Virus record (IMG/VR): IMGVR_UViG_3300020045_009645
Location: 1-37,589 of that record
Length of the DNA stretch: 37,589 nt
From: a virus
Taxonomy: Duplodnaviria; Caudoviricetes
Direction: 5' to 3' (one strand)
Part shown: piece by piece, positions 6,167 through 37,589 of the stretch
How positions within the stretch are numbered: the stretch's first letter is position 1
Layout of the letters: every line of letters starts with the position of its first letter
Position numbers and translations under genes: made by a program
The notes under the pieces: generated by a model
Told to the model about the DNA's origin: nothing
Databases searched by the model: none
Seen by the model: the letters and a program-made list of their open reading frames with translations, nothing else

Positions 6167-6607
6167 TTAAAACGGACAATGTTCTTCGTGATCTGGCGGT
6201 AATTCTGTAACATGTTTATCATGGTCGTGATACTTTCGGATATTAGCCATATTTGTGATAAGTTGGATATTTCCAATGTGGTACCCTTCCCAGTTTCGTA
6301 TTCTGTCAACTGTGCAATTTTTTCCACGGTAACCACGTTTAATGATATATCCTTTTTCTTGGCACCATTCCCGAAACTGCTCCAGCGTGATGGTGAAATT
6401 TTTGCAACGTCTTAATGCATTGCCTCTAAAATTCACATATCTATCATAAACAGGATCAATAATGCGCCTGTGAATGTGATAATGTTTGTGACATAATCCA
6501 CGCTTTTTAGCACATGGTTTTGATTTGCAATGATAAGCGCAACAATAACGACCTTCTATTTTCTTAGCTTCTGAAATTTTGAATTCCAGTTTTTTAGGAG
6601 TGAACAT
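6167..6607 (-). CDS. Putative HNH/His-Me-finger endonuclease with Cys/His-rich N-terminus
   Basis: CCAYHC...LCHKHY metal-binding motif; TVDRIRNWEGYHIGNIQLITNMAN matches the DRIxxxxGYxxGN pattern. Confidence 0.65.
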   Translation of the reverse strand: MFTPKKLEFKISEAKKIEGRYCCAYHCKSKPCAKKRGLCHKHYHIHRRIIDPVYDRYVNFRGNALRRCKNFTITLEQFREWCQEKGYIIKRGYRGKNCTVDRIRNWEGYHIGNIQLITNMANIRKYHDHDKHVTELPPDHEEHCPF

Positions 6608-7395: not shown

Positions 7396-8985
7396 TTAAA
7401 AATCTAAATCTTCATCAAATTCTCCTGCTGGAACTTCTTCAAATTGAATTTCTTGCTCTTGTTGTATTCTCAGTTTTTCCAGTCGCTCATTTTCTATTCT
7501 AATACGTTCCAATTCCAACTTTTCAGCTTTCTTTTCACGGGAGGTAAAAATAGCGTTTGCCCAACCTGGTTTATAACCTCTTTCGGCAGCTAATTTTTTT
7601 AAGTCTTCCAACGTTTCGGTTTTACCCTGTTCCTTACGTTTTTCTTTACGAATTAAAGTTTCTGCCGTAATCTCTTGCAGGTCGCCATCAATTTGTTTAG
7701 GAGTAGTATCACGTTTTTTATTCACGTGTCCGCACATTGGACAAACTGGAGCCGGTTCGTAAACAGCAAAACAACTTTCACACATATCGACTTTAACGGC
7801 GATTTCTTGGTTTTTCTTGCCTCGTTTTTTTGTTTCACCTTCTAATGTCCATTCCTGTACATCGTATGGCAAGCCATGGCGTTCTGTGTTTCCTACGTGG
7901 TCTAGAATGAATGCGTATGGCTTTTCACTTGCTGCAATAGATGCTAAACGCCCTTCTTTGGTTTCAAGATCAAAACCAGGTGCGTAAACAGGACGTAACA
8001 CACGACCTCGCTGTTGAAAATTCAATCCCTTACTTTGGGTTGGACGTAATTCGATTGCTGTTGTAGCTCTTGGAATATCCGTTCCTTCGCCGATAAGGTC
8101 ACATGAAGTCAATCCGTCAACTGATCCGTTAGTAAGTCCGTCAATAAGTTGTTTTCGCAAAACATCATCGGTATTGCCGTCAATGGAGTAAAAACGATAG
8201 CCAAAATTTCTAAACTCCTGTGCTACGTGTTCAGCATGAGCTACGGACACACAAAAAACTATTGCAGGTGCGTTTGGACATAATTTACGATAATGAGCAA
8301 CAGCTGAACCAATAATTTTTGGCTTATCGACTAAATTCGATAAATCGTTTTTATTAAAATCCCCCATGCTTGTGTGAACATCTGATAAATCAAGTTTATC
8401 AGGAGTTCCAAAAATACGAGGTCTGACTAAAAATCCTTCGTCCATTAGCCATGGCATATTTTGTCCTTCAATCAATTCGTCAAATAATCCACCGCATTTT
8501 CTGCCTAATCCCTGACCGTCTGAACGAATTGGAGTAGCCGTAACTCCAAGCGAATAAGCCTCCGGAAAATATTCAATAATTTTCCTCCAGCTTCCAGCCG
8601 TGGCGTGGTGAGCCTCGTCAATTATTATTGTATCTGGTTCCCAATTAACAGCAGTCAGATAGTGCAGTCGTTTAATTATTGTCTGCACGCTTGCTACTTG
8701 TACATTTGCGTTAAAGTTTGGTGTATAAGCGGGGTTTATCATTCCGTGTTCAACGTCAAACCGATTTAAAGCTGCCGATGTTTGGCGCAATAATTCAACA
8801 CGATGTACAAGTATTAACACTCGTTTTTTTTTAAGTGACGATTGTTGCGCTATGTAAGTGAATATTACAGTTTTTCCTTACCCACCGCCCGTCGGAAGTA
8901 CTAATAAGACGGATTTAATCGTTTTAAAAGCATTCCTAAGGGCGGCGACAGCTGTTTTTTGATAGTTTCTTAGATTTAACGACAT
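7396..8985 (-). CDS. SF2 DEAH-box DNA helicase with an in-frame TAA at 8878-8880 inside Walker A (about 527 aa if two codons are bypassed)
   Basis: From ATG 8985: MSLNLRNYQKTAV (Q motif)...LLVLPTGGG*GKTVIFTYIAQQSSLKKKRVLILVHR, in frame with the 474-aa ORF; DEAH, TATP, EGTDIP, QQRGRVLR and a C-terminal CxxC-CxxC are all intact. Confidence 0.85.
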
Positions 8986-9410
8986 AATTTATCTCTCATG
9001 TGTTTTATGTTATAAATTGTCGTTTTATCCCTGTTTTTATAGATGCCGTTATCAAAAGCATGATTCATGTTTTCGGTATTAGTCATCCATTCCAAATTAG
9101 ATGGCTTATTGTCTGTTTTTATACAATTTTTATGATTTACTGTTTCTTTGTTTTCCGGATTTTCTACGAAAGTTTTAGCAATAAGTACATGCAATCGTTT
9201 AGTATATTTCTTTGACTTAACAGATAAATATACTTTGAAGTACCCTTTCTTATCTATAGAATGTTTAAGTATGGTTTGCGAAAAATAAGCAACACGACCA
9301 TCTTTATAAATTGTAGGCGATAGTTTTCTTCTAATCCTTCCTAAATCCGAAACTTCATAGTTATTCTCGAACCCGAAGCACGGGAACCAATTTTCTTCTT
9401 CTTTTTGCAT
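8976..9410 (-). CDS. NUMOD4-HNH homing endonuclease (free-standing)
   Basis: ENWFPCFGFENNYEVSDLGRIR (NUMOD4); LHVLIAKTF...VNHKNCIKTDNKPSNLEWMTNTENMNHA (HNH). Confidence 0.9.
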   Translation of the reverse strand: MQKEEENWFPCFGFENNYEVSDLGRIRRKLSPTIYKDGRVAYFSQTILKHSIDKKGYFKVYLSVKSKKYTKRLHVLIAKTFVENPENKETVNHKNCIKTDNKPSNLEWMTNTENMNHAFDNGIYKNRDKTTIYNIKHMRDKLCR

Positions 9411-9450
9411 GTTATTTAGATTGATAGGTTCTGAGTTGTAGCATATTTTT

Positions 9451-9645
9451 TTACACTGCTTGTTTTTCGCTAAGTACTTCGATAGCCAAATTTATTTTAG
9501 CTAATGTTTTGAAGGCTTTCGGGTCTTCTTTCCAGTTTTGAACAGTAGTTTGAGGCACTTTCGCCTCTCTTAGTACATCATAGATGTTTAATCCTAGATT
9601 TTCGCATTTTTCACGAATAATTTCAATCTGTGTTTTTGCTTCCAT
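9451..9645 (-). CDS. Cro/XRE-like helix-turn-helix regulator
   Basis: 64 aa with IYDVLREAKVPQTTVQNWK HTH pattern; first gene after the divergent intergenic region. Confidence 0.7.
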   Translation of the reverse strand: MEAKTQIEIIREKCENLGLNIYDVLREAKVPQTTVQNWKEDPKAFKTLAKINLAIEVLSEKQAV

Positions 9646-9668
9646 TTATATAGTGTTTTAATGTTATT

Positions 9669-9691
9669 GCAAATATAAACATTAAATTTAA
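9669..9691 (-). promoter_or_regulatory. Leftward promoter/operator of the divergent control region
   Basis: TATATTTG on the minus strand; 23-bp identity to 7347-7369. Confidence 0.7.
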
Positions 9692-9724
9692 TTAAAAAAG
9701 TTTTTTTATTCGAAAAGTTTGTTA

Positions 9725-34339: not shown

Positions 34340-34564
34340 TTATCGGCATCTATTAGTTCCCTTCGAAAAACTGGCAAATTTTCGACCGTTATTCGTGTTT
34401 TGTTCTGGAAATAAACAGTTTTTCATCATAGTTTGAATACGAATCATTTCATCTAATGAGCGATATTTTACAGTTTTATCTCCATACTGAACTTCTAACG
34501 CACCAGAAACTATAGCATCACTTAAAGTTTGATATTGTATTAAAGTATATTGAGTGCAAGCCAT
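34340..34564 (-). CDS. Head completion protein, lambda gpW-like (74 aa)
   Basis: AIVSGALEVQYGDKTVKYRSLDEM; between terminase and portal; start placed at MACTQY. Confidence 0.82.
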   Translation of the reverse strand: MACTQYTLIQYQTLSDAIVSGALEVQYGDKTVKYRSLDEMIRIQTMMKNCLFPEQNTNNGRKFASFSKGTNRCR

Positions 34565-34623
34565 AACGAAAATTTTTGTAAATATATAAAAAAACCTTGA
34601 TAAAATAATGTTGCTAATAAATA

Positions 34624-36534
34624 TTACCAATACCCGCTATTTTTTTTCTTTTTATTTTCAACAGGCTTTGGTTTGTCTGCAATTTTTACCACCTCAACGG
34701 TGCTTTGTGACTTTATTTTTTCCCAAGTATCATCCTTAAATCTATCGATTCCGATGATATAAGCAGCTGCACGGGCATAGTTCCTAACGTCTAACGCTTC
34801 ATTTCTTGCGCCTGATTTTTTTGTCCATTGGTATTCTGCAAACCCTTTTTTGTTGATAACCTGAACTTGCTGTTCGGCAGTAAGCATATTGAAATAATGC
34901 CTGTCATATTGTGGAAAGTGACAATAGCCCTCCGGATAAATTTCTTGCAATCCGTTTTCGCCTTCAATTTCAGTAGGTTTTAATTTTAAAAAGCCATACA
35001 ATTCGGATTTTAATAATCCTGTTCCAAGATACCAAATCTTACGGCTTTCTATTTTTTTACCACTACGTGCCACGTTATATGCTCTTGGAGGCGAAACCAT
35101 AACATCTTTTACAGAATCACGCCCCATTATTGGTACTACTTTTGAATATGGAAATTTGGAGGTAAAATCGTAAACAGTTGAGGTTTTATAGCCAGCATCA
35201 ACGCAAGTTAAGTTTATAGACATCATATTGTGTCCACACTCATACTGCTTTGTAATTTGATTTGACAACTTTTCCCAAACTTCCGCTTTTGAAGTATCAC
35301 CAACAAAAACAAAATATTCGATTGACCACGTTTCACGACCACGACCCCAGCCAACAACTTCGCCTTCGATACGGTCGCCTTGAATATCCACGCCCATAGT
35401 CAAAAAGTAAACTCCTTCCGGAATGGTTCCGATTTCGTATGACTCCCTACGGTTGTATAGATTTTCAGAATCAGGAGCATCGCCTTTAATTTTAAATGTT
35501 TCTCCTAAGACAGTGTTTACAAACGTGCGATACTTGTTTACATCGTTTTTTACTTTTAAATAATCGCGAACAACTTCTTCCCATGAATAAAAACCAGCAG
35601 GAGAATACAGACTTGAAAGGTGATAACTGTATTTTCTTGGGTTGTTTGAAACGGCTGTAGGAATCCATTCTGCAAATCCACCGTGGTTTTTTTCTGCAAG
35701 CATTGCAGTTTTGTGGCGTTCCTCATGTAAAAATCCACAATTAGGACACGCCATGCGCGTGGTTTCCGGTTTTAGTTCGTCATAAGTCAAGTATTCAAAT
35801 TTCAGTGCAAATAAATCCAAACAGCCTTGACATTGCACGTTGTAGTATCTTTGATCTCCGTCCAAAAATTCGGCCCAAATAACTGATTCGCCTTCATTAG
35901 TTGGTGTGCTGGCCAAAAATAGTTTTCGATTTTGAAACGTTCTTGCTCTGGCCCGTGCTAAATCTACAGGAGAACCTTCTTGTCCTGCCGACAATGGGTA
36001 ACGGTCAACTTCATCTAACATTATTTTTGCTGCCGGAGTACTCGACAATCCAACTGGACTATTTGCCCCAATCATTAACAATACACCGCCCGGAAACGAT
36101 TTAGATGTGATTGTATTTTCAGCATCTTTCGAACCGACTTGTTTTATTTTTGAGTTCAAAGACGGTGCGGCATCAATCATTGGCTTAATTCTGGTCCTTG
36201 AATTTTTTTTGATAGCTTCATCGGTTGGCATAACCAGTAATATAATTGACGGGTTCATATCGATTGAGTACCCAACAAAATTATTCATAGTTTCCGTTGC
36301 GCCAACCTGTGCGCCTTTTGCAAAAACAATTTCCTGAGCATGGGAAGTTTTTCCAAGGTGGTCCTGAATTTCTCTAAGAAACGGAGTTCGCTCTACTCTA
36401 TACCTTCCAGGTTCAGCAGACGAAACCGAAGTAAGAAATCTGTTTTGGTTAGCCCACTCCGACACCGTTAAGTTTGGAATTGGACGTAATCCGTTCGCGA
36501 AAGGTTTTCGAATTAAATTTTCTTCATTTATCAT
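34624..36534 (-). CDS. Terminase large subunit, lambda gpA family
   Basis: TVSEWA, KGAQVGATE, LDEVDRY, STPT, GVDIQ, CVDAGY, RNEALD. Confidence 0.95.
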   Translation of the reverse strand: MINEENLIRKPFANGLRPIPNLTVSEWANQNRFLTSVSSAEPGRYRVERTPFLREIQDHLGKTSHAQEIVFAKGAQVGATETMNNFVGYSIDMNPSIILLVMPTDEAIKKNSRTRIKPMIDAAPSLNSKIKQVGSKDAENTITSKSFPGGVLLMIGANSPVGLSSTPAAKIMLDEVDRYPLSAGQEGSPVDLARARARTFQNRKLFLASTPTNEGESVIWAEFLDGDQRYYNVQCQGCLDLFALKFEYLTYDELKPETTRMACPNCGFLHEERHKTAMLAEKNHGGFAEWIPTAVSNNPRKYSYHLSSLYSPAGFYSWEEVVRDYLKVKNDVNKYRTFVNTVLGETFKIKGDAPDSENLYNRRESYEIGTIPEGVYFLTMGVDIQGDRIEGEVVGWGRGRETWSIEYFVFVGDTSKAEVWEKLSNQITKQYECGHNMMSINLTCVDAGYKTSTVYDFTSKFPYSKVVPIMGRDSVKDVMVSPPRAYNVARSGKKIESRKIWYLGTGLLKSELYGFLKLKPTEIEGENGLQEIYPEGYCHFPQYDRHYFNMLTAEQQVQVINKKGFAEYQWTKKSGARNEALDVRNYARAAAYIIGIDRFKDDTWEKIKSQSTVEVVKIADKPKPVENKKKKNSGYW

Positions 36535-37271: not shown

Positions 37272-37589
37272 GAAAAAATAAAGTCACAAAGCACCGTTGA
37301 GGTGGTAAAAATTGCAGACAAACCAAAGCCTGTTGAAAATAAAAAGAAAAAAAATAGCGGGTATTGGTAATATTTATTAGCAACATTATTTTATCAAGGT
37401 TTTTTTATATATTTACAAAAATTTTCGTTATGGCTTGCACTCAATATACTTTAATACAATATCAAACTTTAAGTGATGCTATAGTTTCTGGTGCGTTAGA
37501 AGTTCAGTATGGAGATAAAACTGTAAAATATCGCTCATTAGATGAAATGATTCGTATTCAAACTATGATGAAAAACTGTTTATTTCCAG
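37272..37589 (+). repeat. 318-bp inverted copy of 34405-34722 at the window end
   Basis: Reverse complement of the terminase 3' end, the intergenic region and the gpW 5' part; both junctions checked by eye. Confidence 0.9.

Follow-up and report, generated by a model that had tools for sequence, protein, structure and literature searches.

A stop-led gap in the Walker A motif of phage helicase genes: a probable short programmed bypass carried by a homing cassette

Introduction

In the IMG/VR virus record IMGVR_UViG_3300020045_009645 (Duplodnaviria; Caudoviricetes), whose entire 37,589 nt were analysed and are here called the window, the gene for an SF2 helicase is interrupted inside its Walker A loop by six nucleotides that open with an in-frame stop codon. 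The gap is a real, conserved and mobile feature, and its sequence context makes it probable that ribosomes cross it by a short programmed bypass and that a homing cassette carries it, much as in T4 mobA/gene 60 on a smaller scale.

Natural bypassing has been described in T4 gene 60 and its homologues, in the yeast mitochondrial byps and, as a candidate, in Streptomyces phage Hau3 (cases listed in the available part of Wills et al., bioRxiv 10.1101/2024.12.09.627546); in the terminase gene of Hau3 a 10-nt bypass has been supported (Antonov et al. 2023, PMC10732093). In mobA/gene 60 an endonuclease is combined with a bypass cassette, the nick site is protected by the gap and a 5' stem-loop has a propelling role; T4-type mobA bypass cassettes insert exclusively in topoisomerase genes, according to the available part of the same account (Manning and Atkins, bioRxiv 10.1101/2022.08.31.505936). 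Low-level stop hopping takes place without stimulators (Wills et al., bioRxiv 10.1101/2024.12.09.627546), and synthetic +5 and +6 stop-hops were obtained in E. coli (Weiss et al. 1987, via Atkins et al. 2016, PMC5009743, and Wills et al. 2024); the available portion of Atkins et al. (PMC5009743) knew of no natural in-frame stop hopping as of 2016.

Results

A helicase gene with six extra nucleotides

The virus record, 37.6 kb in length, also encodes terminase, tail, primase and lysin functions (ORF list and Pfam). Its helicase frame lies on the minus strand, as do all features of the locus described below, and runs from an ATG at 8985 to a stop ending at 7396; the called ORF begins at a GTG at 8820, 55 codons 3' of that ATG. 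A first-pass annotation, made from the letters alone, had followed the frame up to 8985, through a Q motif (LRNYQ), and had read the Walker A region as CCG ACG GGC GGT GGG TAA GGA AAA ACT, or PTGGG-stop-GKT, and the sequence bears this out. Upstream of the stop lie 35 codons that lead from the Q motif to PTGGG (ORF1, 8881..8985) and end in GGG (Gly35, 8881..8883), the proposed take-off codon. The TAA occupies 8878..8880 and the proposed landing codon, GGA, 8875..8877; ORF2 (7396..8874) then continues from the Walker A Lys-Thr through 493 codons of helicase body, in which DEAH, motif VI and a four-Cys motif are intact, as the same annotation had held. Written with an X at the stop, the protein matches ResIII (E 3e-29) and Helicase_C (E 1e-12) in Pfam and PHROG 16, DNA helicase, in PHROGs. 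Q motif, Walker A, DExH and motif VI are thus all present, as in an SF2 helicase, and the record holds no second copy of the gene.

Among the 120 best protein homologues, 107 have a plain xTGxGKT loop, none has a longer one and in 13 the region is absent. The six nucleotides are therefore extra, and the earlier view that they are not a nonsense substitution stands; their removal restores the conserved helicase protein. Since TAA is the ordinary stop of this phage, closing 26 of the 31 long ORFs of the window, and a tRNA gene search of the window returned none, reassignment of the stop codon can be rejected. Assembly error, which had been listed as an alternative, is very unlikely because an independent contig, L014, carries a gap (GGG TAA GGT) at the same position, with 85% DNA identity to the window across the 105 nt before it. 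Seven sequencing runs were also aligned, none of which covered the site with the gapped allele.

Two other observations concern the window at large. Its final 318 nt (37272-37589) are an exact inverted copy of 34405-34722, which probably arose as an artefact of assembly or amplification at the end of the contig, and a 146-aa ORF at 6167-6607 (minus strand), with Cys/His clusters and DRIRN...YHIGN, is HNH-like by eye and has no Pfam match.

Occurrence in other phages

At least 71 distinct gapped helicase sites in 36 lineages were found in public viral, genome and metagenome collections, a lineage being a cluster at 80% identity over 90 residues, a rule that puts L014 together with the window. 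Pattern matches whose frame past GKT did not score on a helicase profile were discarded, and the patterns demanded glycine on both sides of the gap, so that the Gly-Gly match is built in. The genome scan gave 54 loci and from these three gapped helicases, whose MAG contigs bear the labels Opitutales, Desulfosporosinus and Flavobacterium; the metagenome scan gave 34 from 104 loci, and a scan with the AAG codon contributed at least one new lineage (L240) among the best 120 of about 260 matches. Some gapped lineages are only about 26% identical to the window, and those of full length keep motif VI in 29 of 29 cases and DExH in 28 of 29. Excluded from the counts were L286 and L295, chance matches in a different helicase with a DVGSGKT loop, and L018, which is distant and has a different loop; L643 and L698 end before the site.

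The gapped form recurs as a minority. In samples drawn without any pattern, 80 of 80, 76 of 78 readable and 17 of 18 loci are plain, the 18 being viral loci matched with the downstream protein, whose one gapped member is L014 (65% identity); in total, three of 176 readable loci (178 loci) are interrupted. Across 401 Flavobacteriaceae genomes there were 18 pattern matches, with a helicase only at the known L293 site, and 36 helicase loci from the Flavobacteriaceae search comprise 34 uninterrupted genes and two known gapped sites. In cultured phages, DNA queries made from the cassette of the window and from the L039 junction each found one weak match and no annotated gapped gene.

Several database proteins (P0006, P0010, P0012, P0014, P0016-P0018, P0022, P0031, P0085 and P0089) start just after Walker A, some of them on contigs longer than 40 kb, and some of these N-short proteins may stem from gapped genes for which a start further downstream was called. 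In the cultured Xanthomonas phage FoX3 (26875-29169) the helicase homologue was matched in two pieces (H24/H25), about 900 nt wider apart than in sister phages, a spacing that suggests another insertion in a helicase gene.

Gap length and the leading stop

Across the 34 Gly-stop-Gly lineages the gap measures 5 nt in six, 6 in eight, 7 in three, 8 in 12, 9 in three and 11 in two, and in the six with 5 nt the stop, TAG, overlaps the landing codon. The stop is TAA in 18 lineages, TGA in nine and TAG in seven; beyond this leading stop the gap sequences share nothing. When as many as 30 nt were permitted between stop and landing, the scan still turned up no helicase gap longer than 11 nt. A stop-agnostic scan of viral contigs, which allowed any insert, returned 117 loci with 30 helicases, 29 of them gapped; in all 29 an in-frame stop directly follows the take-off glycine, and none has a sense-codon insert. 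A reading of TAAGGA as a Shine-Dalgarno sequence was rejected, as it is not conserved and no start follows it.

Because the gap is out of frame in 23 of the 34 lineages, read-through cannot explain the whole gapped family; a hop is one mechanism that would restore the canonical loop at all gap lengths. A fuller version of the recoding alternative invokes hairpin-stimulated read-through for gaps of 6 and 9 nt and -1 or +1 frameshifting for those of 5, 7, 8 and 11 nt, with a P-loop two or more residues longer as its product. The gap of the window is in frame, as read-through needs, but this alternative calls for three different recoding events at one site and for a longer loop that is seen in 0 of the 107 motif-bearing homologues; the 29 gapped helicases include no sense-codon insert, and TAA is the main stop of the phage. 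We regard it as unlikely.

Removal of the gap from the RNA, be it as a micro-intron, by cutting and ligation or by a hairpin-guided polymerase skip, would cope with any gap length, and a conserved hairpin does lie beside the gap (see below). It leaves unexplained, however, that every gap opens with an in-frame stop codon, which can be any of the three, and the gap sequences are otherwise unlike one another, with no Rfam match in window positions 8600-9700; its chances appear slightly poorer still.

Another possibility is a split gene, in which ORF2 is re-initiated and works alone or with the 35-aa peptide. Two-chain function has precedent, to judge from the available text of Manning and Atkins (bioRxiv 10.1101/2022.08.31.505936), in T4 genes 39/60 and in the mobE-split nrdA, and 19 of the 23 out-of-frame lineages have, upstream and in the frame of ORF2, a codon that could serve as a start. 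Yet in the window, as in the other ten in-frame Gly-Gly lineages, the stretch from the stop to the Walker A lysine lacks ATG, GTG and TTG alike, and the break falls inside one P-loop. Re-initiation in the window is impossible without loss of GKT because the next start is at 8820. A split gene is the reading to which we give the least credence.

For a hop, the next matter is the pairing of take-off and landing codons. These are identical in 17 of the 34 lineages, readable by one tRNA in six and cross-box in 11 (e.g., GGT to GGA), where glycine at both ends is demanded by the patterns and the last two classes are told apart by general tRNA reading rules. Decoding by a single tRNA-Gly(UCC), as initially proposed, fits the GGG and GGA of the window and fails as a rule for the family, given the 11 cross-box lineages. 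Two lineages from a pattern-free sample, L633 and L704, have the stop two codons earlier, in CCT ACA TAA followed by TCT or ATT and then GGN. They are in frame, and a hop there would need a threonine take-off at ACA and an unmatched landing on TCT or ATT, which weighs against strict codon matching; read-through, needing no matched landing, fits these two equally well. Exact codon matching seems not to be required. This second gap site in Walker A (about 1980-2005 in each of L633 and L704) lies in both cases behind a hairpin of its own, and L633 also has an HNH gene and a native-start stub.

A stem-loop in the coding sequence before the gap

Immediately behind the take-off site the mRNA of the window is predicted to form a stem-loop (8882..8948) closed by a 9-bp stem (8948-8940 paired with 8890-8882) whose end falls within the take-off codon. 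Its folding energy is -31 kcal/mol (z -3.85; 0 of 200 shuffles), and the hairpin of L014 reaches -33 against about -11 for the plain genes L001 and L002 over the same 75 nt. When only 45 nt of the window are folded the hairpin looks weak (-7.5, z 0.7); the 75-nt fold recovers it. A terminal helix of at least 9 bp that ends no more than 4 nt from take-off is predicted in 35 of 36 gapped lineages against 14 of 63 plain ones, the median fold z is -4.8 against -0.5, and within the clade that carries the LLxLPTGCG peptide, 45-mers at -18 kcal/mol or lower are found in 24 of 25 gapped and one of 47 plain genes, contrasts whose significance is inflated by the non-independence of the lineages. Since plain genes with the same LLxLPTGCG peptide fold weakly, it is codon choice, not the peptide, that produces the hairpin.

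Covariation points the same way for the long-hairpin type, to which the window belongs: over 12 distinct gapped sequences, 98% of 108 cells are paired and five of nine pairs show double changes, with a covariation score higher than in any of the 500 shuffles or any slid control. Support is weaker for the short-hairpin set, in which covariation by pair type does not exceed that of shuffles (108 and 383 of 500). In L633 and L704 the end of the hairpin moves together with the earlier stop. A 5' stem-loop such as programmed bypassing employs is thus found here by prediction and covariation. There is no extra structure 3' of landing, where the median is -9.1 in 34 gapped and -9.6 in 65 plain sequences.

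Three plain helicase genes (L594, L551 and L587) have a strong hairpin that still ends at Walker A; possibly they are revertants that lost the gap, or precursors.

The adjoining endonuclease and the edges of the cassette

The gap of the window is the 3' end of a mobile cassette composed of a truncated native start, an HNH endonuclease, 35 replacement codons and the gap itself. At the left edge (9412..9444) lies a remnant of a native helicase start (MLQLRTYQSK, then a stop) with 87-97% DNA identity over 31-39 nt to the true start of the uninterrupted L001-L009, and similar native-start remnants are found in L293, L633, L489 and L053. Next comes a NUMOD4-HNH endonuclease ORF of 144 aa (8976..9410; Pfam NUMOD4 E 4e-10, HNH_3 E 1.5e-8), which overlaps the replacement ATG and has no alignment in L001-L010 or L012-L015. 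The 35 codons before the gap share 85% DNA identity with L014 and 50% with L001/L002, and in the 105 nt after the landing codon the order is reversed, at 91-93% to L001/L002 and 74% to L014; the identity jump just 3' of GGA marks the right edge. Alignments of two contigs from run X3 reach 8874, break off and resume at the native start (9414/9421), as expected of an empty allele.

An endonuclease of the HNH or GIY-YIG type lies directly upstream in 18 of the 32 gapped lineages with an upstream ORF against one of 60 plain lineages, 14 of the 18 being recognised by Pfam and four more by PHROGs, which was run on the 26 of the 60 plain lineages that had no clear Pfam match; the other 14 of the 32 have no adjoining endonuclease. 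The sole exception among the plain lineages is L669, where a NUMOD4-HNH ORF (1423-1899) stands directly upstream of an uninterrupted helicase. On a tree of ORF2, made by a quick method from 95 of 101 sequences (six short rows left out), the gap needs 20 changes, at least 13 of them forced by well-supported branches, and the window sits beside the plain L006, with which its ORF2 is 99% identical. The locus thus has the marks of a homing cassette: an endonuclease beside a converted stretch, its absence from close relatives and a patchy distribution on the tree of the host gene.

A group I or II intron or an intein at the gap was rejected, as the insert is 6 nt long, Rfam has no match in the region and the inteins of relatives are at Walker B. 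Those relatives, P0054 and P0099, show that mobile elements of more than one kind target this helicase. In L006, an ORF upstream of the plain helicase (2435-2707) opens with a helicase-like Q-motif peptide fused to a small upstream protein, possibly the scar of an older insertion.

Selective constraint

Within the 71 gapped sites ORF2 is full length (at least 420 aa) in 54, runs off the locus end in 17 and is prematurely stopped in none, an integrity that is partly ascertained, since 60 aa and an HMM match were required for inclusion. Within clusters in which every member carries the gap, Nei-Gojobori dN/dS for ORF2 is 0.058 (18 sequences, dS 0.63), 0.069 (10, dS 0.37) and 0.11 (2), and for ORF1, in the same order, 0.09, 0.29 and 0.25. 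By these ratios the downstream helicase frame is under purifying selection. The notion that the insert is peculiar to one assembly and under relaxed selection is contradicted by the 36 lineages and by the ORF2 ratios of the two larger clusters. The window itself gives an ORF2 dN/dS of 0.019 against L001 and L002, a value that mostly predates the insertion, as its ORF2 is 99% identical to that of the plain L006; for its ORF1 dN/dS is about 0.23 against L014. In the gut clusters dS is lower in ORF1 than in ORF2, which may reflect constraint from the hairpin or a recent cassette sweep.

These figures bear on a further alternative, that the helicase is simply inactivated by the cassette, or expressed by background leak alone, and that the phage tolerates this or is helped by the host or a co-infecting phage. 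It is consistent with the minority status of the gapped form (three of 176 loci), with the PIF1-like helicase that the window also encodes and with the recency of the window insertion. Nonetheless, none of the 71 gapped sites has a premature stop, dN/dS is 0.06-0.07 inside two gap-carrying clusters, and a dead gene has no need of a complete rebuilt 5' end with a Q motif and a covarying hairpin; we consider a knockout quite improbable.

Discussion

The helicase gap most likely represents programmed translational bypassing in a new, short form, a reading that draws on sequence comparison throughout. The hop suggested by the first-pass annotation is favoured by the out-of-frame gap lengths, the obligatory stop, the coupled hairpin and purifying selection; what that reading had missed is the 5' hairpin and the HNH cassette that replaced the 5' end of the gene. 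We posit that the ribosome, having translated the 35 codons, comes to a pause with UAA in its A site while peptidyl-tRNA-Gly sits on GGG. The 3' arm of the hairpin, just unwound by the ribosome, would re-zip as mRNA leaves the exit channel and so push the ribosome forward, while the tRNA would release and re-pair on the next GGN, mainly via two G-C pairs. Decoding would restart at AAA, nine bases having yielded one glycine and a normal PTGGGKT loop. The junction peptide under a hop would be SVLLVLPTGGGK followed by TVIFTY, and under read-through it would be two residues longer. As to origin, an HNH element would have inserted about ten codons past the native start and supplied a new 5' end as far as Walker A, ending in the gap. 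To judge by T4 mobA/gene 60, the gap likely disrupts the endonuclease target in the conserved Walker A DNA and leaves the protein unchanged.

By the available descriptions of T4 gene 60/mobA (as cited above), the helicase gap would work like that system without being a member of it. Both have an endonuclease, a new N-terminal segment and then a stop-led gap with glycine codons for take-off and landing (proposed in the helicase); both have a 5' stem-loop (predicted in the helicase) and repeated insertion at one conserved site; and in both the endonuclease types are swapped (HNH, GIY-YIG) and the gap outlives loss of the endonuclease. The T4 gap lies in a topoisomerase gene and spans about 50 nt, whereas that of the helicase lies in Walker A and spans 5-11 nt, too short for the T4 take-off stem-loop; the helicase cassette discards and replaces the native 5' end, which T4 keeps as a partner gene; and the helicase hairpin, unlike that of gene 60, ends at take-off and is built from coding sequence. 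In the helicase, moreover, no 3' barrier to forward slippage was detected and third-base matching is loose.

The synthetic stop-hops in E. coli, as reported in the available texts, are low-level and proceed without stimulators, whereas the helicase gaps are natural, conserved and coupled to a hairpin. The Hau3 terminase resembles the present case in having a short insert in a phage ATPase gene and a stem-loop proposed as stimulator, but its trigger is a hungry UUA sense codon and its proposed role is regulatory; the words helicase and homing are absent from the available text of that paper (PMC10732093). The Magnusiomyces mitochondrial byps are likewise mobile short inserts neutralised by bypassing, and differ in their length (27-55 nt), their mitochondrial location and their unused sense codon as trigger, according to the available part of Manning and Atkins (bioRxiv 10.1101/2022.08.31.505936). 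A literature search covering main texts, with few subscription papers, found no report of such gaps in helicase genes.

The gapped family amounts to dozens of natural minimal constructs of about 110 nt that vary in gap length, frame, stop type, codon match and hairpin size. This natural variation makes it directly testable whether re-folding of the mRNA behind the ribosome is enough for take-off and forward movement. If the proposal holds, the logic of the mobA cassette would extend to a second kind of host gene, and some phage helicases entered in databases as N-truncated may be full genes. A broader conjecture, to which we would give about even chances, is that the micro-bypass, consisting of a coding hairpin, a stop and a few bases, is a third general way, beside introns and inteins, for phage homing endonucleases to enter an essential motif at no cost; that it moves the ribosome 5-11 nt with loose or no codon matching and works in hosts of several phyla with no dedicated factor; and that it arose or moved many times and occurs in several unrelated ATPase genes. 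Were this so, short hops would be a common and overlooked form of recoding in phages, recorded by gene callers as truncated genes.
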